Assembly: GCA_043740245.1 (NCBI GenBank)
Contig: JAYUCP010000171.1
Location: 5,835-69,834 of the forward strand
Length of the DNA: 64,000 bases
Direction: 5' to 3'
Source: Acidobacteriota bacterium
GTDB taxonomy: Bacteria; Acidobacteriota; Blastocatellia; RBC074
Made by a program: the position numbers and the translations under genes. Shown piece by piece: positions 3,685-56,157 of this stretch. Each line of letters starts with the position of its first letter. Positions within the stretch are counted from its first letter, which is position 1. A model generated the notes under the pieces. That model did no database searches. It was not told where the DNA came from and saw only the letters and a list, made by a program, of their open reading frames with translations.

Positions 3685-4479
3685 TTATTTCTGCGCTGCT
3701 GGCCGGATGCTCAGTTCCGGCACGTAACGCACGACCAGCGCTTCGCGGTGCGCCACTACTCCGGCAGGCGGCGCGGTCGCCAGGTTCAATTCGGCCTGCG
3801 CTTTGGCCAGCGCCTGTGCAAACTTAAGCCCGTCGGCATAGGAATCGAACAGCAAGAGTGTGCGGTATTCATCCGTATCACCGCCGAACGCGACCTTGCC
3901 CGCTAACACGCCTTTGATACCGGCTTTCTTAGTTGCCGGCAGAAGGTTTTCTTTGACAAACTTTTCCCACTCGGCGGCGCGACCGGGCATCACGATGGTC
4001 TTGATCGAAGTCGCCAACTTCATCGGTTCGCTCGAAGCCGGCGCAATGCCCAGATCGGGCCGGCCTTGCGAGACGTAGCTACGCCATTCCGCCAGCAGCC
4101 GTCCCTGCTTGTTGTTGAGCGCCCGTGCGCCCTCTTCGCCCAACGCCTTGACGAGCGGCGTGGGTTCGTCAAGCTGCGCAAAATTCTCCAGCGCCGCCGA
4201 GATGATGACCCACTGGCGCACATCGCCCTGGACTACCTGCAGTACGGTCTGCTGCTTGACCCCGGCTTTCTTCAATGCCGGCAGCACTTCATTCTTGTAG
4301 AGCGTTTGCCATTCGGCACTCACCCCCGGATTCGTTTTGATCACTTGCACGCGGTAAAACTGCGGCGCGGGCGGTTGAGTTTGGGCGAACGTGAATGACG
4401 CGAGCGCGGCGGCCAGCAGCAGGCCGAACAGCGCGGCGCGTGTAAATTGCGAAATTGATTGATGAACTACGTGTGGCAT
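3685..4479 (-). CDS. Secreted tandem NIPSNAP-like domain protein (paralog family)
   Basis: AAGGAG RBS plus ATG at 4479. Leader MPHVVHQSISQFTRAALFGLLLAAALASFTFAQ is nearly identical to the giant protein leader. Two internal repeats (..NPGVSAEWQTLYKNEVLPALKKAGVK.. and ..MPGRAAEWEKFVKENLLPATKKAGIKG..). Confidence 0.7.
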   Translation of the reverse strand: MPHVVHQSISQFTRAALFGLLLAAALASFTFAQTQPPAPQFYRVQVIKTNPGVSAEWQTLYKNEVLPALKKAGVKQQTVLQVVQGDVRQWVIISAALENFAQLDEPTPLVKALGEEGARALNNKQGRLLAEWRSYVSQGRPDLGIAPASSEPMKLATSIKTIVMPGRAAEWEKFVKENLLPATKKAGIKGVLAGKVAFGGDTDEYRTLLLFDSYADGLKFAQALAKAQAELNLATAPPAGVVAHREALVVRYVPELSIRPAAQK

Positions 4480-4570
4480 GGTTTTGGTCTCCTTGAAATG
4501 AACGAGGGTTGGTGGTTGCGCGGCGGGTGCGTTACGCGCCGCGTTGAAACAAGCGCCTGGATACTGGCGC

Positions 4571-12238: not shown

Positions 12239-12365
12239 AGCAGTCTCCTTGGTTGGCTCTTTGTGTAGTTGTGATTGAAAGTGAATGAATAGGCAGCGCC
12301 GCGCACTGCGTCGCCGCACAGGTTGAGCGCGCGCCGGTGCGGTACGCGCGCGCGGTATATGGAAA

Positions 12366-12594: not shown

Positions 12595-13440
12595 TCACTG
12601 CACTTGATCCACGAGCGTCAGCACTTGTGTGCGCACGGTTTTGCGCGCGGCGTTGCTTTGCGCCGTCGCGTCAGCGATGTTCACGCCCGGCAGCACCTTG
12701 GCGGTGAGTTCCGGCGGATATTGCGTTTCGAGTTGCGCGAACTTGTCGAAGAAGCTGATTGAGATCAGGCCGTAATCCCGCTCAGTCCCGCCGGGGTAGC
12801 GCACGGCAAACCGTTGCCAGCCCCTTTGCATGCCGCGTTTGACGCGTTCCTCGTGCAGCGGCTTCCAGTATTTGGCGATCAAGGCGGTGTATTCCGCGCC
12901 CTTGCCCGGCTCCACCTTTTGAAAATTGATCTCGGCCACGGGCGGCAGCGGTTGCGGGTTGAGCGCCGTGCTGTCGAGCAGCGTGACCAGCTCCGAGCGC
13001 ACCAGGCGGATCAGCCCACGCGAACGCGCCAGGAGTTCGGTGGCGGTCGTGTTCGGAAAGACCTTGGTGAAAATCGCCGCTGGATAAGGCGTTTCGACAT
13101 CGGCGAACTTGTCGAAAGTCGTGATGGTGACCCGGTCGTATTCGCGGGCGGCGCCGCCGGGAAAGCGCACGTTCCACACCGACCAGGATTTGATGATGCC
13201 CTGTTTGACGCGCTCGCGTTGGATGGGCAGATAAGCCTCTTGTTCCAGCTTGCGATACTCCGCGGCTTTGCCCGGTTCGAATTTGAAATACTCGAACAAG
13301 GCGTATTTCGGCCCCGTCGGCGAGGCGAGTTGCCCTTGCGCTTGACTGCGGTTGAGCAGGCTTGGCGCGCAAAGCGTGAGCAGCACAAACAACGCGAGCC
13401 ACAACGAACGATGCGAGCCTTGGTGAATTCCGTGTGTCAT
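12595..13440 (-). CDS. Secreted tandem NIPSNAP-like domain protein (paralog of 13507..14358)
   Basis: AAGGAG RBS plus ATG at 13440 and signal peptide. Two ~125-aa internal repeats carrying F.KVEPGK.AEY....YW.P...ERV..G...W.....RYPGG..R(E/D)Y..(I/V)....FDKF. This is the NIPSNAP-like pattern, assigned from memory. Confidence 0.75.
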   Translation of the reverse strand: MTHGIHQGSHRSLWLALFVLLTLCAPSLLNRSQAQGQLASPTGPKYALFEYFKFEPGKAAEYRKLEQEAYLPIQRERVKQGIIKSWSVWNVRFPGGAAREYDRVTITTFDKFADVETPYPAAIFTKVFPNTTATELLARSRGLIRLVRSELVTLLDSTALNPQPLPPVAEINFQKVEPGKGAEYTALIAKYWKPLHEERVKRGMQRGWQRFAVRYPGGTERDYGLISISFFDKFAQLETQYPPELTAKVLPGVNIADATAQSNAARKTVRTQVLTLVDQVQ

Positions 13441-13506
13441 GATTTTTCTCCTTGTTGGGTTGTGATTGAAATTGAAGGTAAGTGAAGCACTGCGACATGC
13501 GGCCGC

Positions 13507-14358
13507 TCACTGCACGTAATCGCCCAGCGCCAGCAACTCCGTCCGCACCTGCCGGCGCGCCGCATTCGTCTGGGCGCTGATGTCGGCGTATTTGAGGCCC
13601 GGATGCACCTTCTCCAGAATGCCCGCCGGCAGCGCCTCCATCTGTTCGAACTTGTCGAAGAGGTCCACCGAGACGTGGCTGTATTCACGGTCAGAGCCGC
13701 CGGGGAAGCGCAACGCGGTCAGCGCCCAGCCGCACATGCCGCCGCGCGTGATGCGCTCCTGCCAGAGCGGTTTCCAGTATTTGCGCGAGATTTCAACGTA
13801 GGCCGGCCCTTTGCCCGGCTCCGTTTTCATGAAGTTCAGACTCATGAATTTCGGCAACGCGGTGGGCTGAATGCTGTCGAGCACCTGCACCACTTCGCTG
13901 CGCACCATCTTGCGCAGCGAGCCGGTGTAAGCCAGCACGTCCGCCATTTTTTTCTCCGGGTGTTCCTTGGCGAAGCTGGCGAAGACCGCCGGCGGATAGG
14001 GCGTTTCGAGATCCGTGAACTTGTCGAAGGTAGTGATGAGCACCACGTCGTATTCGCGGGCCAGGCCGCCGGGGTAGCGCACGAGCCACTGCCACCACGC
14101 GCGGATCGCCCCGGCCTTGATGCGCTCGCGGTGAATCGGCATCCAGACGTCGCGTTCGTCCTTGCGATAGTCGGCGTTCTTGCCCGGCTCGATCTTCAGG
14201 TATTCCAGCAGGGCGAATTTCGGCGGCGCGGCCTGTGTGGCTTGTGCCGGAGTTTGCGGATAGGCGCGCTGCATCAGGCGCGGCGTGCAAAGCGCGAGCA
14301 GCACGAGCAACGCGAAACAAAGCGCGCGGATCGAGAAGCGGTGAATTACGTGTGTCAT
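13507..14358 (-). CDS. Secreted tandem NIPSNAP-like domain protein (paralog of 12595..13440)
   Basis: AGGAGA RBS plus ATG at 14358 (leader MTHVIHRFSIRALCFALLVLLALCTP). The ORF extends upstream to 14442 but without an RBS. Clear paralogy to 12595..13440 across both domains. Confidence 0.75.
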   Translation of the reverse strand: MTHVIHRFSIRALCFALLVLLALCTPRLMQRAYPQTPAQATQAAPPKFALLEYLKIEPGKNADYRKDERDVWMPIHRERIKAGAIRAWWQWLVRYPGGLAREYDVVLITTFDKFTDLETPYPPAVFASFAKEHPEKKMADVLAYTGSLRKMVRSEVVQVLDSIQPTALPKFMSLNFMKTEPGKGPAYVEISRKYWKPLWQERITRGGMCGWALTALRFPGGSDREYSHVSVDLFDKFEQMEALPAGILEKVHPGLKYADISAQTNAARRQVRTELLALGDYVQ

Positions 14359-14488
14359 GGTTTTGATCTCCTGGTTGGTTCGGTTGTGATTGTGGGCAAA
14401 TGAATGTGCGGCGGGTGCGGAAACGGCACGGCGGGCGGCCATCCGCCCAGCTTGATGCCGTTACTTCGCCGCCGCGCTTGCAATCGCG

Positions 14489-15034
14489 CTAAGGCGTTCC
14501 GAAGCGCTTCTTCATCTCGGCGTCAATCTCCAGCAGTGTGAAAACTTGCGTCGGGCTGCCTGCGGGACGGAACTGCACGTGGGGGAAGTCCTTCAGCTTT
14601 TTGAATAATCCGCCCGGCGTCAGGCCCAGCTTCTGCGCCTCTTCGACGTAGACCCGATAGCCGTTCTGGCCTTTCACCAGTTTGCTGATGGAAAATTCCG
14701 CCTTGCCGTCCACCAGCCAGAAACAGTCCATGGCTTCACCCCACTGATGCCAGGACAAACCGGGCGGAGCGTCGGTGACGTGACCGCCGTGCTGCGGCCC
14801 GACGCTCTCCAGACAATGCGCCAGAAAATCAGCGCCGGCGGACTGCAAGTCTTTGATCTTTGCTTTGATCTCTCCGCCGGGGCGGGCTTGCCGCCAGAGC
14901 CGGGCCTGCTCGAACGGATCGCGCAGCGTCTGGCTCGGGCGCATCTCGATGCCTCTGGCCAGACAGTTTTTCAAAAGCTCTTTGGCAATAGGTCTGAGTT
15001 TCGGAATCAGGTCGTTGATGTCTCGTGATGCCAT
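14489..15034 (-). CDS. Peptidase M15 family (VanY / L-alanyl-D-glutamate endopeptidase-like) zinc peptidase
   Basis: GAGGGG RBS plus ATG at 15034. Motif SWHQWGEAMD fits the LAS/M15 S.H..G.A.D zinc-ligand signature. Size ~180 aa. Confidence 0.7.
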   Translation of the reverse strand: MASRDINDLIPKLRPIAKELLKNCLARGIEMRPSQTLRDPFEQARLWRQARPGGEIKAKIKDLQSAGADFLAHCLESVGPQHGGHVTDAPPGLSWHQWGEAMDCFWLVDGKAEFSISKLVKGQNGYRVYVEEAQKLGLTPGGLFKKLKDFPHVQFRPAGSPTQVFTLLEIDAEMKKRFGTP

Positions 15035-15064
15035 AACATTCCCCTCTTTGGTTTGGAACAAACG

Positions 15065-15898
15065 TTAGCCGATCAGGCGCTCGCCAATCAGAAACGTTTC
15101 CCTGAATTTGGCGAGACCGTGGGAGCCGCCATTGACGAGGCGGCGTGCTTCTTTGAAGTTGCGGGCGAGCAGGGCTTCCTTGATCGCGCGTTCTTTCGCT
15201 TTCAGAAACGACGCCAGCAACCGCGCCGCAATGGCCGGCTCGTTGGCGCGCTCCGGCTTATCAACCAACTCATCGCCCAACCCAATGGCTGCGCCATGCA
15301 CGCGATAGTTGGCGCGCCCGGTCAGTTGGATGAAACCGCGCCCTTTGAAACTGGCGCCGTCCGGCACACCTTGATTGCCCAAATCCTTGCGGTTGTCGTA
15401 GAGATCGAAAGGATGACCGCCCGGCGAAGTATTAAATTTGGATTTGAACTCGCTGAGCGGCTCGAAGCCTTCGGTCTCGACGCGAATCGTAGCCAGCGCC
15501 ATCAGGATCATGTTTTTATCTCCCAGCCCTTCTGCCAACTCTGCGTCGGCCATTGCTTGCAAGACAACGGGCAGATTCGCGCTGATGTTTTTGACGGGCG
15601 TGAGCGGGAACATCTGCCGGACGAGCGCGACCGTGAACCTTTCGAGGATGGGTTTGCCGGTCGCGGGCGGCAACTCCACCGGAGCGCCCGCCCCGAATTT
15701 GTTCAGTTCAGCCAGCGTGTCCTTGCCAGCCTTGCCGTCCGCCAATAGCCCGTGACTTTTCTGAAAGCCCCGCAGCGCGATGTCCGTGGCGTCGTCAAAC
15801 GTTCCACTCGGCGGGCCGGGATTGAATCCCGCCGCGCCCAGCTTCTCCTGTAGTTTGAAAATTTCCGGGCCGGAGTCGCCCTTTTTCCAGAAAGACAT
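15065..15898 (-). CDS. Peptidoglycan-binding domain + GH19-family lysozyme/chitinase-like muramidase
   Basis: AAAGGGGAA RBS plus ATG at 15898. The N-terminal GDSGPEIFKLQEKLGAAGFNPGPPSGTFDDATDIALRGFQKSHGLLADG is a PG_binding_1-like repeat. The C-terminal KGRGFIQLTGRANY matches the GH19 catalytic signature. Confidence 0.7.
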   Translation of the reverse strand: MSFWKKGDSGPEIFKLQEKLGAAGFNPGPPSGTFDDATDIALRGFQKSHGLLADGKAGKDTLAELNKFGAGAPVELPPATGKPILERFTVALVRQMFPLTPVKNISANLPVVLQAMADAELAEGLGDKNMILMALATIRVETEGFEPLSEFKSKFNTSPGGHPFDLYDNRKDLGNQGVPDGASFKGRGFIQLTGRANYRVHGAAIGLGDELVDKPERANEPAIAARLLASFLKAKERAIKEALLARNFKEARRLVNGGSHGLAKFRETFLIGERLIG

Positions 15899-16179
15899 CT
15901 CGTGATTCCCCTTTCGTTAGTGCAGCGTTATCGGTGGTGAATACTTGCTGCGGACTTTGGTTGTTAGCGCCACCTGCCCCGCCACAATGCTCGGTTAAAA
16001 ACCGCCGTCATCCCGGTAGCGCAAACTGTTAGTTTGCGGTTCTTCAGGGCACGGCGCGCGCGTCATTGCGCGGCGTGCCAGCAACGCTTGGGCGCGACAC
16101 ACGAGCGCTTCAGACGTCGGGCTGCGCGCCGCTCTCTGACCACGCGCTTGCCGTGCCCTGAACAACACGGCCCGCGCGT

Positions 16180-17067
16180 TTATTGAAAGCCCGCCTTCTT
16201 CTCTTCCGGCGTTTGCCTGAAGTCCGCCGGCACGCGCAGTTCGCCCTCTTCGAGATAAAACTCCCTGAGCGCCTTGACCTTCACTTTCACGGGCGTGGCG
16301 GTGGCGCCGTTGGCGCGCAGTTCGCCGTCGGCCTCCTGCGTTTCCTTGAGCCGTTCGGCGATGGTATTGGGCCGCGCAATGACGAGGCGCACGCCGCGGC
16401 TCAACTCCGCATCGGTAAACGTGCGGCCGCTGAAGCTGACCGCCAGCACCTGATCGAAGTCCGGCGGCGCGCTGATGAAATGGGCCAGGAAAAGTTCCTG
16501 GCCTTTGCCGAAGAGCAGGTATTCCAGACGGGCGGCGGGCGCGGCGGGCGTGAACTCGCGGAAGTGGATGACCTGTTTGACATTCACGGTAAAGTGCTCG
16601 GCCTGCGGGCGGTTGTCAGGTAGTTCGAGATGGTCGCGAAAAAAGCTGGCCTGAAACGCGCTCAGCTTGGCGCGGCTCGCCACCAGATTGGGCAGGACGA
16701 ACTTTTTTTCCGGGCCCAAGGTGTAGATTTTGGTCTCCGGATGGGCCTTCCGGTCAGCGGCATAGAGCGCCTGTGGGTCGCTGCCCGGCTTCGTAAAGGT
16801 CGCTTCCAAAATCATCTGGTAACGATGCGGCGAGACGAACCCGTCGCCGCTGAACATCGGCAGATGGGAAAGAAAGACCGTCTCTTGCCCGACGATCAGC
16901 ATGTTGTGAGTGGCCGCCTTTTCAGCCGCTGCGGCGTGATGTTCCGGCACGGCGAAACGCGCAGCGGCGCGAGACGCTTGCTGCTTTTGCGCGAAGCTGG
17001 ATTGATCGGGCGCGGCGATCAACACAATCGCCCAGAGCGTGGCGATGAACAGGGAATGATTTTTCAT
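16180..17067 (-). CDS. Secreted hypothetical protein
   Basis: AGGAGA RBS plus ATG at 17067 and signal peptide MKNHSLFIATLWAIVLIAAP. No recognisable domain. Confidence 0.6.
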   Translation of the reverse strand: MKNHSLFIATLWAIVLIAAPDQSSFAQKQQASRAAARFAVPEHHAAAAEKAATHNMLIVGQETVFLSHLPMFSGDGFVSPHRYQMILEATFTKPGSDPQALYAADRKAHPETKIYTLGPEKKFVLPNLVASRAKLSAFQASFFRDHLELPDNRPQAEHFTVNVKQVIHFREFTPAAPAARLEYLLFGKGQELFLAHFISAPPDFDQVLAVSFSGRTFTDAELSRGVRLVIARPNTIAERLKETQEADGELRANGATATPVKVKVKALREFYLEEGELRVPADFRQTPEEKKAGFQ

Positions 17068-17153
17068 GGTTTTTCTCCTGTTCGTAGTCCCGGCTTCAGG
17101 CGGCAGCGCGCGTCAGCCAAGCCCTGCCGCCTGAAGCCGGGACTACGAACGTT

Positions 17154-18062
17154 TCATTGTTTGACGGTTTGTGTCCCGGCGAGCGGCGGTTCGAGCGCAC
17201 GTTTCGGTTGTTCGGTCTGCGTCGCCGGAGCCTGGCTGCGAATGAAATCCTGCTCGGCCTCGAAGCCGTTGCCCAGCGCCTTCCACGCGGCGCTGCGATT
17301 GAAATAGGCCAGATTGAAATCGGGCTTCAACCGGATGGCTTCGCTGTAATCGGCGAGCGCGCCGCGCAGGTCGCCGAGGGCTTTGCGCGTCAGGCCGCGA
17401 TTGCTGTAGAGCAGCGCGAGGCTGGGGTCGAGCGCGATGGCTTGGTCGTAATCGCGGAGCGCGCCGCGCAGGTCGCCCTGATCGTGGCGGATGCCGGCGC
17501 GGTTGTTGAGGGCCGAGGGCAGGCGCGGATCGAGCATCAGCGCCTGTGTGTAATCGCTGAGGGCGGCGGCGAGGTTGCCTTTGTTTTGGTGGACGAGGCC
17601 GCGATTGTTCCAGGCCAGCACGGCGCGTGGGTCGAGCTTGATGGCGCGGCTGAAATCGTCGAGCGCGCCGTCCAATTCGCCCTGCTGGGAGCGCAGGTTG
17701 CCGCGCTTGATCCAGGCCAGGACGTAATGCGGGTTGAGCGCGAGGGCTTCGTCCAGATCGCCGCGCGCGGCGGCGTAATCCTGCTGGTCGTAGCGGACGA
17801 CGGCGCGGTTGTAATAGAGCACCGCCGCTTCGGGGTTGACGATGCCGATGTGATTGGCCGCCACAGCGCCGGGCGAGAGTTGGGTGGCGAGTTCGAGCGC
17901 GTGGTCGAAATCGTTGAAGGCGCCGTCGAGATCGCCTTGTTGATAGCGGGCCACGCCGCGTTTGAAAAAGTCTTCGGTGGAATTGGCGCGCGGCGTTTGC
18001 GCCTGGACGGAAGCGCTAACAGAGGCGAGCGTGAAAATTACGAGACAGAGAATGCGTTTCAT
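17154..18062 (-). CDS. Secreted TPR-repeat protein (paralog of 1759..2697)
   Basis: AAGGAG RBS plus ATG at 18062 and signal peptide. TPR units collinear with 1759..2697, including the C-terminal LEPPLA. Confidence 0.8.
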   Translation of the reverse strand: MKRILCLVIFTLASVSASVQAQTPRANSTEDFFKRGVARYQQGDLDGAFNDFDHALELATQLSPGAVAANHIGIVNPEAAVLYYNRAVVRYDQQDYAAARGDLDEALALNPHYVLAWIKRGNLRSQQGELDGALDDFSRAIKLDPRAVLAWNNRGLVHQNKGNLAAALSDYTQALMLDPRLPSALNNRAGIRHDQGDLRGALRDYDQAIALDPSLALLYSNRGLTRKALGDLRGALADYSEAIRLKPDFNLAYFNRSAAWKALGNGFEAEQDFIRSQAPATQTEQPKRALEPPLAGTQTVKQ

Positions 18063-19146: not shown

Positions 19147-19450
19147 GTTTTGCTCCTTACTTGGAAAGAGGTAGAGCGATTTGCCAAAGCGCTCCACCGA
19201 ATTTTCGGCAATGCCGTATTGTCGCGGCTTCAACGATTGGCATAGAATGCCGCCACCGTTGAGTTCAGCCGTGAGTCCCGCAATGACTCACGCCATGTTT
19301 CCGCCCTCCACACGGCATCGAGTTCGGGTTGTTACTTACTGCTTGTCTGCTGTAATGCACGATAGACCAGTGTGCTTTGATAGTCTTTAAGGTTTGGGAA
19401 AATTCCGGCTAAAGTCCGCTGAAATTTTTCCGGCCAGGGGGAGTAACTCG

Positions 19451-20833
19451 ATGAACACACGACCACGCATGATTTACGAATTCGGCCCGTACCGTCTGGA
19501 ACTGGCTGAATGCCGCTTGTTGCGGAACGGCAAAGAGGTAACGCTCAGGCCAAAGCTTTTCGATCTGCTGGCCGTGCTGGTGCAGCGCGGCGGGCAGATG
19601 ATCGAGAAAGACGAGCTATTGCAAACCGTCTGGCCCGACAGCGCCGTCGAAGAAAACAACCTGACCGTCAGCATCAACGCGCTACGCAAAAGCATCGGCG
19701 AACATTACATCGAAACCGTTTCGAAACGCGGTTACCGCTTCACGGCGGCGGTCAAGCCGGTGTCTGCGGATGCGCCAGCCACGGCTCAGCCCAGTGTGCC
19801 CGTGTTACCGCCCGGTGAATTGCAGCCGCCCGGCGGCGCGTTGCCGTTGCATTCGCGCCTATACATCGCGCGCCACACCGATGCGCAATTCGGCGCGGCC
19901 ATCGCGCGGCGCGACAGCATCGTGCTGGTCAAGGGCGCGCGTCAGGTGGGCAAGACTTCGTTGCTCGCGCGCGGCTTGCAACAGGCGCGGGCGGCGGGCG
20001 CGGCGGTCGTGCTGACCGACTTTCAACACCTCAACGCCGAAGCCTTTGCCACTGTCGAAAAGCTCTTGCTGACGCTGGCCGAATTGATCGCCGACCGGCT
20101 CGACCTGGATACGCCGCCGCACGAACACTGGAACAGCTTTCTCAGTCCGAGCAGCAATTTCGAGCGCTACTTGCGGCGGCAGGTGCTGGCGCGGCTGACG
20201 ACGCCGCTGGTGTGGGGTTTGGACGAAGTTGACAGGTTGTTCAGCTTTGCTTACGCCAGCGAGATTTTCGGCTTGTTCCGCTCGTGGCATAACCTGCGCG
20301 CGCTCGAACCCGAAGGGCCCTGGCCGCGCCTGACGCTGGCGCTGGCTTATGCCACCGAAGCGCATCTGTTTATCACCGATCTCAATCAATCGCCTTTCAA
20401 CGTTGGCACGCGGCTGGTGCTCGAAGATTTCACGCGCGAGCAAGTGGCCGAATTGAATGAACGCTACGGCGCGCCGCTTGGTGATGCTGCCGAGGTCGCG
20501 CGCTTTTTCGCCTTGCTGGGCGGGCATCCTTATCTGGCGCAGCGCGGCTTGTATGAACTGGCGCAACACGGTCTCGCGTTGACGGCGCTCGAAACGCAAG
20601 CCGACCAGGACGAAGGTTTGTTCGGCGATCATTTGCGGCGGCTGCTGGTGTCGCTCGAACGCGATGCGGCGTTGTGCGAAGCCTTGCGCGCGTGGTTGCG
20701 AGGCGAGGCCGCGCTGGCGAACGCGGAGTTTTACCGGCTGCGCAGCGCGGGCGTGCTGGCGGGCGAAGCAGCAGCCGAAGCGCGGCCACGCTGCGAGTTG
20801 TATGCGCGTTACTTGAAACAGCGGCTGTTGTGA
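19451..20833 (+). CDS. OmpR/PhoB-type winged-helix DNA-binding domain fused to AAA-like (P-loop) ATPase domain
   Basis: GGGGGAG RBS plus ATG at 19451. The N-terminal [54 protein letters not shown]...[15 protein letters not shown]...VSKRGYRF is a canonical trans_reg_C. A Walker [12 protein letters not shown] follows. The ATPase domain is paralogous to the N-terminus of 21194..24487 (shared GHPYL(A/T)QR). Confidence 0.75.
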
Positions 20834-20843
20834 TGGTGTCAGC

Positions 20844-21138
20844 AGTCGCATTCTCTTCGTCGCAGAGCGACGGCTGACTTTAGCCGTGGGTTTCAACCCA
20901 CGGAACGTTCGGCAATAGTTCCCGCGTCGCGGAGCGACGCTTGATGCTTGGCGTAATTCGCATTGTGTTTTTCCGTCATCACGATGCAATGGAAAAGCGA
21001 GGTACAGGTTTGCCATTTCGTTTTTCCGTCAATCCTTCAAGCGTCGCTACGCGACGCGGGATGCGCGCGCTGTCGTCCGTGGGTTGAAACCCACGGCTAA
21101 AGTCAGCCGTCGCTCCGCGACGAAGAAAGTGCGCATTT
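20844..21138. mobile_element. MITE-like palindromic element, family A copy 1 (~60-bp imperfect TIRs, nested inner inverted repeats)
   Basis: Left end tcgcattctcttcgtcgcagagcgacggctgactttagccgtgggtttcaacccacgg pairs with the right end ccgtgggttgaaacccacggctaaagtcagccgtcgctccgcgacgaagaaagtgcgc. Inner inverted repeat cccgcgtcgcggagcgacgcttga / tcaagcgtcgctacgcgacgcggg. No coding capacity. Related copies at ~51003 and ~55883. Confidence 0.6.
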
Positions 21139-21193: not shown

Positions 21194-24100
21194 ATGATGG
21201 ACACATTGCAAAAACAATTCGCGCCCGGTTTTTATGTGGTCGGCGGCACGCTGCGCCACGATGCGCCGTCGTATGTCGAGCGGCGCGCCGATCACGAGTT
21301 GTTTGAAGCCCTGGCGCGCGGCGAATTTTGTTACGTGCTGACGGCGCGCCAGATGGGCAAATCGTCGTTGATGATTCGCACGGCGATGCGGCTGCGCGCG
21401 GCGGGTTGCGGTGTCGCCGTGCTCGATCTGACCGCCGTGGGCCAGAACCTGACGGCGGAGCAATGGTACGGCGGGCTGCTCTTGCAAGTCGGTCAGCGGC
21501 TCGAATTGGAAGACGAGTTGATCGAGTTCTGGCAAGCGCAAACGCTGCTCGGCCCGTTGCAACGCTGGCTGGCGGCGTTGCGCACGGTGGTGTTGGCGCA
21601 TTATCCAACCAGGCGGCTGGCCGGGCGGCTGGTGATTTTCATTGACGAGATTGACGCGGTGCGCAGCTTGCCGTTTTCGACTGATGAGTTCTTTGCCGGG
21701 TTGCGCGAATGTTACAACCTGCGCAGTGAAGACGCGGAACTGGAGCGCCTGAGTTTTTGTCTGTTGGGCGTAGCGACACCAGCGGACTTGATCCGTGACA
21801 CCCGCACGACGCCTTTCAACATTGGCCGCCGCGTCGAATTGCACGATTTCACCGCCGCCGAAGCCGCGCCGCTCGCGCAAGGCTTGAATTGCCCCGCGCC
21901 CAGCGCCGGCGCTTTGCTGGCGCGCATTCATCACTGGACGAACGGCCATCCTTACCTGACGCAACGCCTCTGCCAGGCCGTCGCCGAAGCCAATCTGCAA
22001 GCCACCAACCACCAGCCGCAATTGCCGCAATTAGTGGATGAGTTGTGCGCCGAATTGTTTTTCACGCGGCGCGCGCAGGAACGCGATGACAATTTGCTCT
22101 TTGTGCGCGAACGCCTGTTGCGCAACGAGACCGCTGTGGCGAGCCTGCTCGATCTTTATGCCAAGGTGCGCAAGGGTCGCCGCGTGATGGATGACGAAGC
22201 CGATCCGCGGGTGAGCACGTTGCGCTTGGCGGGCATTACGCGCGGCGCGCCCGCCGGGTTGGCGGAAGCAGGCTTGCAAGTGCGCAATCGCATCTACGCG
22301 CGCGTTTTCGATCCGGCCTGGGTTGCGGCGAACATGCCGCAGGCCGAATTGCGGCGGCAACGCGCGGCCTATCGGCGCGGCATTGTGCGCACGGCCTTGT
22401 TGAGCGGGTTGTTGCTGGCGCTGGTGGGCTGGCTGGCTTTCACCGCCATCCGCCAACGCAACCGCGCCGAACAGGAAGCCGAAGCGCGGCGGCAGTTGCT
22501 TTACGATTCGCAACTGCGCTTTGCCTGGCAGGAGTACCAGACCATCACCAACACTGACCGCATCGAAGAGTTGTTGGATGGCACCCGTCCGCAACCCGGC
22601 CAGAACGATTTGCGCGGGTTCGAATGGTATCAACTCTGGGCGCTCACGCATGGCGGCGTGTGGAGCTGGCAGGAGACACACAAAGTCGTCGCCACAGCCT
22701 TCTCCCCGGATGGCCAGACGCTGGCAATCGGTACGGCCAATCGCACGGGCGCGCACGGCGACAATCACTATCTGGTGAAACTCTACGACTTCAACACACG
22801 GCGCGAACTGCGTTCATTCCTCACACCCGCAGGCAACAGCTTCGATCTCATCAGCTTTACGCCAAACCTTGAACGTGTAGCCACAGATAGCCCCGGCAAT
22901 AACGTTGTGATGTGGGATGTGCTGACGGGCCAGCCGTTGGCGGTATTCAAAGGACACACCGCTTTGCTGACGGTCATCGCCTTTGCGCCCGATGGCCGCT
23001 GGCTGGCGACCGGCGATGTGACCGGCGTCGTGAAGCTCTGGGACACGGCGACGGGCCGCGAACGATTGACGCTGGGACAAAGCAAGACAGGCGCGCCGCC
23101 CTCGCACGACATCACCTGGCTCGCCTTTGCGCCGGATGGCCGCCGGCTGTTGGCCGCCGATGGCACATCAACCGCGCGTTGGTGGGAAACCGCGACAGGC
23201 CGCGCGCTGCCGCCGTTCACCTTGCCGGATGGCTTTGTTCAAAACGCCGTCTTTCTGCCCGGCGGCAAACAGATATTGATGGGCGACAAAGACAGCGTAT
23301 TCCACCTGTGGGACGTAGCAGCGCGGCGGCATTTAACCCGCTGGAACGGTCACGCCGGCTTTATCAAAGCCTTCGCTTTCGCGCCTGATGGCCGCACGTT
23401 GGCGACCGGCAGTTATGACCGCACCGTCAAACTCTGGCCGTTGGCGACGCTGCCTAAACAAGCGCCGCAACCCACGACGTTGCGCGGCCACGGCTCGGCG
23501 GTTTATTGCCTGGCCTGGTCGCCCGATGGCCGCTGGCTGGCGACGGGCAGTTTGGACAACACCGTCAAACTGTGGGACACGCACGTGCCGACCGACTTGC
23601 GGCTGCCGGCGGAAACGGTGGTTTCTTGGCACGCGACGGCGTTCACCAGCACGCACGAATTACTGGCGCTCGGCACGAGCAAAGGCGGAGAGGTGAAGCT
23701 CTGGAATCTGTCTACCGGCCAGACATTGGCGCAACTCAGCGGGTTGGAACCGGACAAGCCGTTGTTGTGCGCCGTCTTTTCGCCCGATCAACAGTTGGTG
23801 GTGACGAGCGGCATGGATTCGCTGGTCAGGCTCTGGGATACGGCCAGCGGGAAGCTGCTGCAAACGCTGGATCGGCACACGTCACTGGTCAAAGGCTTGG
23901 CCTTTTCAGCCGATGGCAAGTTGCTGGTGTCAGGTGGCGACGATTCATTATTCCAACTCTGGGAGACAGCAACGGGGCGCGCGTTGGGCCAATTCAAAAG
24001 TGAGGTGGACAATGCCTGGCGCGCGGCCTTTGCGCCGGATGGCCGCACACTGGCGGGGGCTTGCCGCGACGGCAGCGTGAAGCTGTGGGACGTGGCGACG

Positions 24101-24487
24101 CAACGACTCTTGCGCAGCTTCAATGGGCACACGGACAGAGTCAAAGCCCTGGCCTTTTCGCATGACGGCCACTGGCTGGCGACCGGCGGCGATGACGGCA
24201 TCATCAAATTGTGGGAAGCCGCCACGGGCCGCGCGCTGAAAACGCTGGGACGCAGCGACAAACTGCAACGCCTCGCCTTCTCGCCCGACGGCAAACGCCT
24301 GGTCACGGGCGGTGTGGATGGCGCCGTCAAACTCTGGGATCTGACCACCGGCCAGGAACTGCTGACCTTGCCAGGCCACCAGGACGAAGTGACTTCGCTC
24401 ACCTTTGCGGGCGACGGGTTGAGCCTGGCAACCAGCGGCGGCGACGGCACAGTGCGGCTTTGGCGCGCGTCGGCTGCTAGGCAGTAA
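21194..24487 (+). CDS. AAA-like ATPase domain + predicted TM helix + ~14 WD40 repeats (1097 aa)
   Basis: N-terminal P-loop ARQMGKSSLM and DEID Walker B-like motif. A hydrophobic segment ALLSGLLLALVGWLAFTAI lies around residue 400. The C-terminal half has repeated GH....V.AFAPDGR.LATGS.D..VKLWD units. Confidence 0.85.
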   Translation: MMDTLQKQFAPGFYVVGGTLRHDAPSYVERRADHELFEALARGEFCYVLTARQMGKSSLMIRTAMRLRAAGCGVAVLDLTAVGQNLTAEQWYGGLLLQVGQRLELEDELIEFWQAQTLLGPLQRWLAALRTVVLAHYPTRRLAGRLVIFIDEIDAVRSLPFSTDEFFAGLRECYNLRSEDAELERLSFCLLGVATPADLIRDTRTTPFNIGRRVELHDFTAAEAAPLAQGLNCPAPSAGALLARIHHWTNGHPYLTQRLCQAVAEANLQATNHQPQLPQLVDELCAELFFTRRAQERDDNLLFVRERLLRNETAVASLLDLYAKVRKGRRVMDDEADPRVSTLRLAGITRGAPAGLAEAGLQVRNRIYARVFDPAWVAANMPQAELRRQRAAYRRGIVRTALLSGLLLALVGWLAFTAIRQRNRAEQEAEARRQLLYDSQLRFAWQEYQTITNTDRIEELLDGTRPQPGQNDLRGFEWYQLWALTHGGVWSWQETHKVVATAFSPDGQTLAIGTANRTGAHGDNHYLVKLYDFNTRRELRSFLTPAGNSFDLISFTPNLERVATDSPGNNVVMWDVLTGQPLAVFKGHTALLTVIAFAPDGRWLATGDVTGVVKLWDTATGRERLTLGQSKTGAPPSHDITWLAFAPDGRRLLAADGTSTARWWETATGRALPPFTLPDGFVQNAVFLPGGKQILMGDKDSVFHLWDVAARRHLTRWNGHAGFIKAFAFAPDGRTLATGSYDRTVKLWPLATLPKQAPQPTTLRGHGSAVYCLAWSPDGRWLATGSLDNTVKLWDTHVPTDLRLPAETVVSWHATAFTSTHELLALGTSKGGEVKLWNLSTGQTLAQLSGLEPDKPLLCAVFSPDQQLVVTSGMDSLVRLWDTASGKLLQTLDRHTSLVKGLAFSADGKLLVSGGDDSLFQLWETATGRALGQFKSEVDNAWRAAFAPDGRTLAGACRDGSVKLWDVATQRLLRSFNGHTDRVKALAFSHDGHWLATGGDDGIIKLWEAATGRALKTLGRSDKLQRLAFSPDGKRLVTGGVDGAVKLWDLTTGQELLTLPGHQDEVTSLTFAGDGLSLATSGGDGTVRLWRASAARQ

Positions 24488-55873: not shown

Positions 55874-56157
55874 GCTGAGACAGTAGTGGTAAAAATGTAA
55901 TGCTGCATTTTTGCAGCCGCGTAGCGGCGACCTGAATTTAGCCCGGCGTTTCAACGCCGGGTAGCGCGGCACGAATGACCCGCGTCGCGTAGCGACGGTT
56001 GAAACGGAAGCGAATACCGGAAAAGGTTCAAGCGTCGCGATGCAACGCGGAATTGCCTCGTTCCGCTACCGTGGTTTGAAAACCACGGCTAAATTCACCT
56101 TGTCGCTACGCGACAAAAACGGACAAGCATTACATTTTTACCACTACCGCTGAGACA
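55874..56157. mobile_element. MITE with 21-bp perfect TIRs and 9-bp target-site duplication, carrying a family A core
   Basis: TIR-L gtagtggtaaaaatgtaatgc (55883-55903) is the exact reverse complement of TIR-R gcattacatttttaccactac (56127-56147). Direct repeat gctgagaca flanks both ends (55874-55882 and 56149-56157). The interior shares cccgcgtcgcgtagcgacg, ttcaagcgtcgc and ccgtggtttgaaaaccacggctaaa with the other family A copies. Confidence 0.65.

Follow-up and report, generated by a model that had tools for sequence, protein, structure and literature searches.

Within a 64,000-nucleotide stretch of an Acidobacteriota genome (GenBank GCA_043740245.1, contig JAYUCP010000171.1, positions 5,835 to 69,834; hereafter the window), whose nearest named relatives are Blastocatellia, we examined two adjacent minus-strand genes predicted to encode peptidoglycan hydrolases (Table 1). 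Both open reading frames (ORFs) lie where an earlier reading of the letters alone, here called the sequence-only reading, had placed them. The upstream gene encodes a protein of 277 residues with a PG_binding_1 domain and a domain resembling glycoside hydrolase family 19 (GH19), and the downstream gene a putative M15 zinc peptidase. Their public labels are 'peptidoglycan-binding protein', 'putative chitinase' and 'M15 family metallopeptidase', and a protein 100% identical to the GH19-like product is present in public data (P0001). Identical proteins for both genes (P0001 and P0121) come from one public contig of 79.9 kb. The listed M15 ORF starts from a TTG at 15061 (190 aa), whereas the homologues all begin at the ATG at 15034 (MASR.., 181 aa); because they do so, and because a ribosome-binding site (AAGAGGGG) precedes it, we took that ATG as the real start. 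As no terminator separates the two genes, they are probably co-transcribed. In a scan of 14300-16300 we found neither a sigma-70-like promoter nor a minus-strand terminator-like site, and the terminator-like sites present were all on the plus strand, inside the genes. A search for inverted repeats of at least 12 nt gave none. Matches to the LexA-box pattern GTTCN7GTTC numbered 38, fewer than the 48.8 that chance would give, and none upstream of the operon was convincing. The upstream region is poorly conserved among relatives except near the ribosome-binding site, and its comparison in the window and loci L006, L007 and L012 gave no shared motif beyond that site.

In the 277-residue protein, the PG_binding_1 domain scored 53.9 bits against a Pfam cutoff of 23. 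The sequence-only reading had called a GH19 domain, naming failure at the HMM threshold as a refutation, and here it formally failed by its own test: Glyco_hydro_19 (PF00182) reached 17.9 bits, below the cutoff of 25.5, and covered residues 180-223 only. We nevertheless keep the GH19 assignment, because PHROG, PDB, predicted fold and invariant catalytic residues agree. The protein matches the PHROG_181 endolysin family (2e-25) and, among PDB sequences, the GH19-type endolysins PWe2 (9ms7, 1e-12), that of Pseudomonas aeruginosa (9eoi, 2e-10) and SPN1S (4ok7, 2e-8). Its AlphaFold model (pLDDT 84.4) has the alpha-helical fold of the GH19 and lysozyme superfamily, with Foldseek matches to 9ms7 (TM-score 0.81), 4ok7, 9eoi, 8p8e and TseP (8xcl), as well as to S. 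griseus GH19 chitinase C and plant GH19 chitinases. Furthermore, an alignment of 13 relatives from several phyla showed E141, E150, Y167, Q191, T193 and N256 to be invariant; Q191 and T193 lie in the motif GRGFIQLTGRANY and N256 in VNGG. Four of these (Y167/Q191/T193/N256) align directly with Y103/Q127/T129/N188 of the P. aeruginosa enzyme PaGH19Lys, whose active-site residues are E51/E60/Y103/Q127/T129/N188 (PMC12329726); E141 and E150 were equated with E51 and E60 by their invariance and the same 9-residue spacing. Precomputed PF00182 matches are present in many close homologues. On the predicted fold and these residues, rather than on the Pfam threshold, we consider the GH19 catalytic domain confirmed. 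NCBIfam gave only matches to the PG-binding domain and no family-level model, and no extra C-terminal domain was found by Pfam or alignment, the chain ending with the GH19 domain.

The M15 protein passed the VanY model (PF02557, 31.0 bits against a cutoff of 25) and was borderline for Peptidase_M15_4 (PF13539, 25.0 bits against 25). Its metal triad H96, D103 and H152, of the LAS zinc-binding type (H-x6-D...H), is invariant, as are D149 and R38. The model (pLDDT 87.1) matched best the folds of the L-Ala-D-Glu endopeptidases Ply500 and LysB4, followed by VanXYc, VanY and Serratia ChiX (5opz); both the gathering score and the triad and fold thus place it in M15. The domain calls of the sequence-only reading therefore stand at Pfam level for PG_binding_1 and M15, and by fold and residues for GH19.

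Both products are leaderless. With signal peptides judged by hydropathy alone, the highest 19-residue value was 0.91 in the GH19-like protein and 0.58 in the M15 protein, with no hydrophobic segment in either, and a hydrophobic N-terminus was absent in 160/160 members or representatives of the GH19-like family; the suggestion of no obvious signal peptide was thus borne out.

Searches of sequence collections show that each protein has numerous cellular relatives. Those of the GH19-like protein number thousands, are about 265-277 aa long and share the leaderless architecture; counting one genome per species, full-length relatives among the matches listed are 49-82% identical across about nine phyla. 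Their hosts are Acidobacteriota (several orders), Alpha-, Beta- and Gammaproteobacteria, 'delta' lineages, Gemmatimonas, Nitrospirota, Nitrospinota, Bacteroidota (Dyadobacter, Larkinella, Ignavibacteria), Cyanobacteria and a Heliomicrobium metagenome-assembled genome. Of the M15 family (about 180 aa, also leaderless), 569 relatives were detected, from Acidobacteriota, Longimicrobia, Binatia and further groups. Viral relatives are more distant. Among the matches listed from 2.9 million IMG/VR contigs, the best for the GH19-like protein was 45% identical and confined to the catalytic domain, in a protein with a single domain. Over the full length, matches were 26-30% identical, and scans with clade-specific peptides found no relative. 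Single-protein viral scans and an exhaustive tblastn of 50,697 GenBank phage records likewise gave no close viral relative: GH19-like matches were all below 60%, the best full-length ones (about 28%) being mycobacteriophage LysA, and the window-type M15 protein had no match in those records. IMG/VR holds a few M15 relatives at 31-54% identity (best 53-54%), one of them beside tail-fibre genes (L177, 45%) and another near UmuDC-like and tail-fibre-like genes (L174, 53%). A simple neighbour-joining tree separates the cellular GH19-like clade by a long branch from the viral relative nearest to it; taxonomic groups hold together at family level, and the deep branching across phyla is star-like. 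We found no description of this cellular clade in the literature.

The genes themselves bear the marks of long residence. Ratios of nonsynonymous to synonymous substitution (dN/dS) among close relatives are 0.05-0.20 for the GH19-like gene and 0.21 for M15, and the GC content of the pair (0.59-0.60; 0.73 at third codon positions, GC3) equals that of clearly chromosomal genes. On long contigs each gene occurs alone among housekeeping genes (L001, L003, L005, L008, L010); in two Blastocatellia (L005 and L008) the GH19-like gene is syntenic between pseudouridine synthase and FGGY kinase genes. On these sequence comparisons, both are long-resident cellular genes under purifying selection, encoding proteins that descend from phage-type lysins. 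No phage gene, integrase included, was found when every sizeable ORF of the window was scanned with Pfam and/or PHROGs, and the window contains no tRNA; the claim that phage context is missing held over the full 64 kb, prophage structural genes included.

Are the two genes a unit? We addressed this at about 80 GH19-like loci (the best 80 among the matches listed) and about 100 M15 loci, using mechanical ORF calls. A window-type M15 gene lay within 10 kb of the GH19-like gene in 0/80 loci, and a GH19-like gene was present at 0/102 M15 loci. Only overlapping alternative-frame ORFs were widely shared among the neighbours, and no conserved family emerged; same-strand downstream ORFs of the GH19-like gene were signal-like in 10/66 cases, with no shared family, and a small ORF with a transmembrane (TM) segment occurred in only five flanks. 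Neither in the window nor in the 80 loci was a holin, spanin, immunity or secretion gene regularly beside the GH19 module. Judged by gene order, these are two separate, mostly solo cellular families and the pair is not a fixed cassette, which disposes of the idea of a transplanted cassette. Nor are the activities of the pair those of a typical phage lysis cassette, as the sequence-only reading had described them: such a cassette comprises a holin and an endolysin, with or without spanins, and these partners were not found here; of its hallmarks only the leaderless hydrolase is present, and the phage location is lacking as well.

The combination of activities, by contrast with the arrangement, recurs. 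Within the window's own clade the two genes are linked, but in differing ways: they adjoin each other in the sister genome (L006/L007), and in the close relatives L274 and L273 the M15 gene has the same orientation as the GH19-like gene and lies about 2 kb upstream of it, separated from it by two or three others (in L274, genes like sec281 and unk264 of the window). Unrelated lineages arrived at the same combination with other M15 subfamilies: a VanY+PG_binding_1 gene comes 59 nt after the GH19-like gene in L071 and 35 nt after it in L044, and L073 encodes a 513-aa M15-PG_binding_1-PG_binding_1-GH19 fusion. Among ten long representatives containing the module, five are M15/VanY+PG_binding_1+GH19 fusions and one a Peptidase_C39_2+PG_binding_1+GH19 fusion, and their GH19 modules share 44-59% identity with the window protein. 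A 489-aa M15-GH19 fusion occurs in Rhizobium sp. NXC14, and in Caballeronia sp. M1242 an Amidase_2+PG_binding_1 gene directly precedes a PG_binding_1-GH19 gene. Because the GH19 module is recurrently fused or adjacent to stem-peptide hydrolases, a real functional pairing is supported: on the predicted activities, the pair is a functional combination of one glycan cutter and one stem-peptide cutter, a recurrent theme. That the module has repeatedly been combined with one or another peptide-stem cutter suggests that destroying the wall completely is selected for.

Several further arrangements were recorded. The Rhizobium fusion is carried on the 530-kb conjugative plasmid pRspNXC14a. Its neighbours there encode a patatin-like phospholipase, a protein related to the 3-TM family described below, a papain-like cysteine protease and a DUF2726 protein, and the surroundings have the appearance of an island for conflict or effector functions. 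A second pairing of peptidase and glycosidase was seen at six loci: about 90-115 nt downstream of the M15 gene lies one for a leaderless protein, about 210-250 aa long, that has no Pfam match and is homologous to a GH75-type chitosanase of a soil virus (7tvm, 2e-21). A 447-aa protein (P0112) considered as an M15-GH19 fusion was not used, its N-terminus having no significant BLASTP match to the window M15 protein and no Pfam match.

The reading we favour, to which we give a probability of roughly 0.5, is that a small operon of two peptidoglycan hydrolases of phage-type descent forms a resident two-cut lysin module, which would reach the wall when the inner membrane is opened. The GH19 enzyme would bind the sacculus through its N-terminal PG_binding_1 domain and, by homology to PaGH19Lys, a muramidase without chitinase activity (PMC12329726), hydrolyse MurNAc-GlcNAc bonds (those joining N-acetylmuramic acid to N-acetylglucosamine). 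The M15 enzyme, on its fold matches, would cleave the stem peptide, probably at L-Ala-D-Glu, and both together could dismantle the wall faster than either alone. Since no export signal is present in either protein or in the family members examined, the enzymes are predicted to accumulate in the cytoplasm and to gain access to the wall once a separately encoded membrane protein, or membrane damage, opens the inner membrane. The outcome would be controlled or damage-triggered lysis of the producer, with release of the cell contents; by analogy, regulated or damage-triggered self-lysis is the role we favour. The bond specificities, the cytoplasmic location, a membrane partner acting in trans and the autolytic role are what we infer. 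Of the three options offered by the sequence-only reading, a domesticated lysis module fits best, given the long residence and purifying selection; the other two, antibacterial effectors and cell-wall remodelling, are weighed below as rivals.

The nearest worked example is P. aeruginosa Lys (PaGH19Lys; PA0629), a leaderless GH19 endolysin that is used by the cell itself for explosive cell lysis (PMC4834629) when one of several holins fires (PMC8131026). The two enzymes share the GH19 fold and active-site residues and are both leaderless and chromosomal. However, PaGH19Lys is a single domain without PG_binding_1, aligns over the catalytic core only (E=2e-10) and is encoded in the R/F-pyocin (tailocin) cluster next to putative spanins (PMC12329726), whereas the window gene has no spanin or holin neighbours and belongs to a separate clade. 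Modular endolysins of Gram-negative phages (phiKZ gp144, 3bkh; Burkholderia AP3, 5nm7) are likewise leaderless and have the same order of N-terminal PG-binding and C-terminal catalytic domains, but they are phage-encoded, unlike the window gene, and gp144 has a lytic transglycosylase domain instead of GH19. The GH19 endolysins SPN1S and PWe2, with the same catalytic fold, are single-domain and phage-encoded too. For M15, the M15C endolysins (Ply500 of Listeria phage A500, 2vo9; LysB4 of Bacillus phage B4, 6akv; T5 endolysin) have the same LAS-type fold and H-x6-D...H triad, at about 20% identity; the window protein has no cell-wall-binding domain of its own. Type 10 secretion (Serratia ChiW-ChiX, Salmonella TtsA) also employs domesticated phage lysis enzymes in the chromosome (PMC9527704, PMC10109510), and ChiX, an M15 L-Ala-D-Glu endopeptidase, is a structural match of the window M15 protein. 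That system is defined by a holin and peptidase beside leaderless cargo, whereas here there is no holin and the neighbours have Sec-type leaders. The kind is thus already known, cell-owned phage-type lysins with familiar components, and what is new is this cellular clade and pair.

Concrete candidates for the membrane step come from a family of about 400-aa proteins with two or three TM-like segments at conserved positions (the 3-TM family), which has 1834 matches, no Pfam domain and no name. Its members are about 45-48% identical across Burkholderiales, Spirosomaceae/Chitinophagaceae, Longimicrobia and Blastocatellia and their genes immediately precede (-4 to +43 nt) those of leaderless PG-binding lysins, among others in Caballeronia, Spirosoma and Blastocatellia. 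In Caballeronia sp. M1242, the 423-aa member, with three hydrophobic segments, precedes the amidase and PG_binding_1-GH19 genes, and its stop codon abuts the amidase start. The following lysin is Amidase_2+PG_binding_1 in 4/4 contexts (L276-L279), within 4 nt and among housekeeping genes in all three contexts beyond Caballeronia, and PG_binding_1-GH19 in L045; weaker relatives lie upstream of the GH19-like gene in L037 and L026. The family may be a holin-like partner. As it is absent from the window, any role for the window pair would be in trans and is speculative. On a wider view, leaderless PG-binding lysins of phage descent (GH19, Amidase_2 and M15) would constitute a widespread phage-independent cellular system, kept by selection in nine phyla or more; the 3-TM family would be dedicated to their passage through the inner membrane, with the window operon as one cargo, for regulated self-lysis or the killing of neighbours; we put this forward tentatively and hold it to be doubtful.

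Several points weigh against a resident self-lysis module. The lack of a leader is a verdict of hydropathy, and the bond specificity of the M15 enzyme is predicted from structures only about 20% identical. Direct adjacency of the two genes was confined, among the loci examined, to the window and one sister genome (L006/L007), and L012, at 82% identity, has the GH19-like gene without M15 within 10 kb; moreover, the sampled loci were the best 80 among the matches listed. The release route is conjecture: a hydropathy search for holins over 2-27 kb of the window, in agreement with the earlier claim that no holin lies nearby, returned only Sec-like leaders and alternative-frame ORFs, with no small TM ORF or membrane gene near the pair, and the window holds no 3-TM gene.

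The alternative that survives best is that the two proteins are antibacterial effectors, delivered by a contact-dependent system encoded elsewhere or by lysed kin, with the nearby secreted proteins sec281, sec311 and unk264 as periplasmic immunity proteins; we regard this as unlikely. The GH19-like fold does match that of TseP, a dual amidase-lysozyme enzyme described as a type VI secretion system (T6SS) effector (PMC11893102). Effectors of the TseP type combine two wall-cutting activities, have a lysozyme-type C-terminal domain to which the GH19 model corresponds, and are leaderless, as is typical of effectors of such systems. The multi-lytic fusions (M15+GH19, C39+GH19), the phospholipase and protease genes beside the Rhizobium fusion, and the constant position of the lysins among Sec-type secreted paralogues in the window's clade point the same way. 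However, the effector-immunity pairs of T6SS, or of type IV secretion of the X-T4SS kind, are recognized by a cognate gene for periplasmic immunity right beside the effector and by linkage to trafficking functions, and the window pair has secreted paralogues linked within its clade only: no conserved downstream secreted or immunity-like gene appeared in the 80 loci, no secretion-system gene lies near the pair, and VgrG, Hcp, PAAR, an XVIPCD-type trafficking domain and a C-terminal extension are all absent. Sec281-like genes are missing from L005 and L008, and in a comparison with PDB sequences aimed at known lysozyme inhibitors, sec281, unk264 and sec295 had no match.

We consider it distinctly unlikely that the pair serves housekeeping wall turnover, as cytoplasmic or otherwise non-lytic enzymes, processing fragments of peptidoglycan taken up by the cell or remodelling the wall as the cell grows. 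Leaderless proteins under strong purifying selection, in housekeeping contexts with synteny kept in L005 and L008, would suit such a role, and in fold the M15 protein is also similar to VanX and VanXYc, which are cytoplasmic dipeptidases. The PG_binding_1 domain and the open, endolysin-type cleft point instead to the polymeric sacculus as substrate. Enzymes with lytic action are the nearest relatives, the genes are distributed patchily with deep mixing across phyla, and no recycling genes were linked in any locus examined.

Quite improbable, in our view, is an effector of programmed death or defence, in which STAND-type sensors would control the lysins and lysis would follow infection or stress. 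It derives from two public proteins, P0276, which fuses an nSTAND1 NTPase and TPR repeats to PG_binding_1-GH19, and P0275, which joins TPR repeats to the same module, and from the Trans_reg_C+AAA_35 and AAA_35+WD40 proteins encoded 3.5-9 kb from the pair in the window; a homologue of the AAA_35 regulator flanks the island in L274, and Trans_reg_C+TPR proteins do so in L273. Yet only one or two of 150 representatives have the STAND fusion, the AAA_35 genes are not beside the lysins in L006, L012 or across the family, PADLOC matched 0 families for the pair and five neighbours, which also tells against the effector reading, and a cytoplasmic lysin would still need passage through the membrane. 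In P0276 (1219 aa) and P0275 (706 aa), the module is about 46% identical to the window protein, and a strongly hydrophobic segment accompanies the nSTAND1 fusion at about residue 525; an nSTAND1-TPR-PG_binding_1-GH19 fusion would make the lysin the output domain of an NLR-like protein.

Finally, that these are the last genes of a decayed lysis cassette in a cryptic prophage or tailocin is scarcely credible and we reject it, because the genes, although their catalytic domains are both of phage-endolysin type and true phages carry relatives (L177, with M15 beside tail fibres, and L092, with GH19 near terminase), belong to cellular clades that are inherited vertically at family level and set apart from viral sequences by a long branch, show purifying selection (dN/dS) and host-like composition (GC3), occur solo in housekeeping contexts in many genomes, and lie in 64 kb free of phage genes, integrase and tRNA.

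The finding has wider implications. Phage-type lysins kept for the bacterium's own use are known from a few model cases, namely pyocin Lys in explosive lysis and type 10 secretion, and there a holin is nearby. Here, large conserved cellular families lack a holin, an immunity gene and an export signal, in abundant, hard-to-culture soil phyla. If the enzymes are active, one must ask which agent opens the membrane to them, and at what moment. Enzyme discovery could also draw on the GH19-like and M15 families for non-phage lysins.

Table 1. Features of the lysin operon, its surroundings in the window and related loci (positions without a locus prefix refer to the window)
Feature	Position	Strand	Remarks
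M15 (VanY / M15_4) zinc peptidase gene	14489..15034	-	181 aa, leaderless; from Pfam, homologue starts, AlphaFold/Foldseek
Spacer between the two genes	15035..15064	-	30 nt; Shine-Dalgarno-like AAGAGGGG at 15048-15041
PG_binding_1 + GH19-fold glycosidase gene	15065..15898	-	277 aa, leaderless; stop codon 15065-15067; from ORF, Pfam, PHROG, PDB, AlphaFold/Foldseek
GH19-fold catalytic domain	15068..15613	-	about residues 96-277; from invariant columns, 9eoi alignment, fold matches
PG_binding_1 domain	15704..15874	-	residues 9-65; Pfam; resembles phiKZ gp144 N-terminal domain
Intergenic region upstream of operon	15899..16179	-	ribosome-binding site GAAAGGGG at 15915-15908
unk264	3685-4479	-	
sec281	12595-13440	-	
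sec311	13507-14442	-	
Similar 5' leaders	4480-4530, 12242-12300, 13441-13490, 14362-14410	-	just upstream of unk264, adhesin, sec281, sec311
TPR paralogues	1759-2697, 17154-18062	-	
Trans_reg_C + AAA_35 gene	19394-20833	+	
AAA_35 + WD40 gene	21194-24487	+	about 14 WD40 repeats, STAND-like
Acido-Lenti-1 RNA motif	20858-20903	-	above Rfam gathering score
Acido-Lenti-1 RNA motif	21077-21122	+	above Rfam gathering score
Acido-Lenti-1 RNA motif	55915-55961	-	above Rfam gathering score
Long inverted repeat	17068-17177		GTAGTCCCGGCTTCAGGCGGCAG ... CTGCCGCCTGAAGCCGGGACTAC
M15-linked chitosanase-like protein	L011:10659-11414		251 aa; homologues L199, L206, L207, L214, L257
M15-GH19 fusion, Rhizobium sp. 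NXC14	L275:5086-6555		NXC14_RS22005
3-TM family, Caballeronia sp. M1242	L276:3813-5084		JYK05_RS23390
3-TM family	L277:5001-6218		
3-TM family	L278:5001-6305		
3-TM family	L279:3695-4927		
3-TM family	L045:8855-9958		

The window resembles an Acidobacteriota chromosome, and its genes run in the order TetR regulator, TPR protein, unknown secreted protein, Ig/FG-GAP adhesin of 2582 aa, two unknown secreted paralogues, the lysin pair, another unknown secreted protein, TPR protein, Trans_reg_C+AAA_35, AAA_35+WD40, dienelactone hydrolase, ECF sigma factor, fatty acyl reductase, NiFe hydrogenase, PAS histidine kinase and an exopolysaccharide cluster. Signal-like N-termini were found in sec281, sec311, sec295, the TPR protein, unk264 and the adhesin, in line with the earlier picture of a block of secreted proteins with a giant adhesin.

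Sec281 and sec311 are paralogues with 50% identity and unk264 is a distant relative; sec281 is itself an internal duplication with halves 39% identical. None of the three has a Pfam, PHROG or PDB match, apart from a 'faint' NIPSNAP match in one relative, and copies of the sec281 family accompany lysin genes in L006, L012 and L274. Four secreted-protein genes (unk264, the adhesin gene, sec281 and sec311) have in common a similar 5' leader (..TTCAyTT..CAATCACAAC..AACCAAGGAGA..), which the lysin operon does not have, and the first residues M(T/P)(H/R)(V/G)(I/V/F)H(Q/R); the leader may be a common regulatory or translational element.

The two TPR proteins are secreted paralogues (51% identical), one at each end of the secreted-protein block; the syntenic islands of L006 and L012 contain TPR paralogues as well. 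The two AAA_35 genes, whose AAA_35 regions are 34% identical, are transcribed divergently from the lysin-containing block, and it is the first of them whose homologue flanks the L274 island. Two of the three Acido-Lenti-1 RNA motifs flank the gap between these genes. Lastly, a long near-perfect inverted repeat lies between the TPR gene and the sec295 gene, and a similar GC-rich palindrome is found upstream of 18758.

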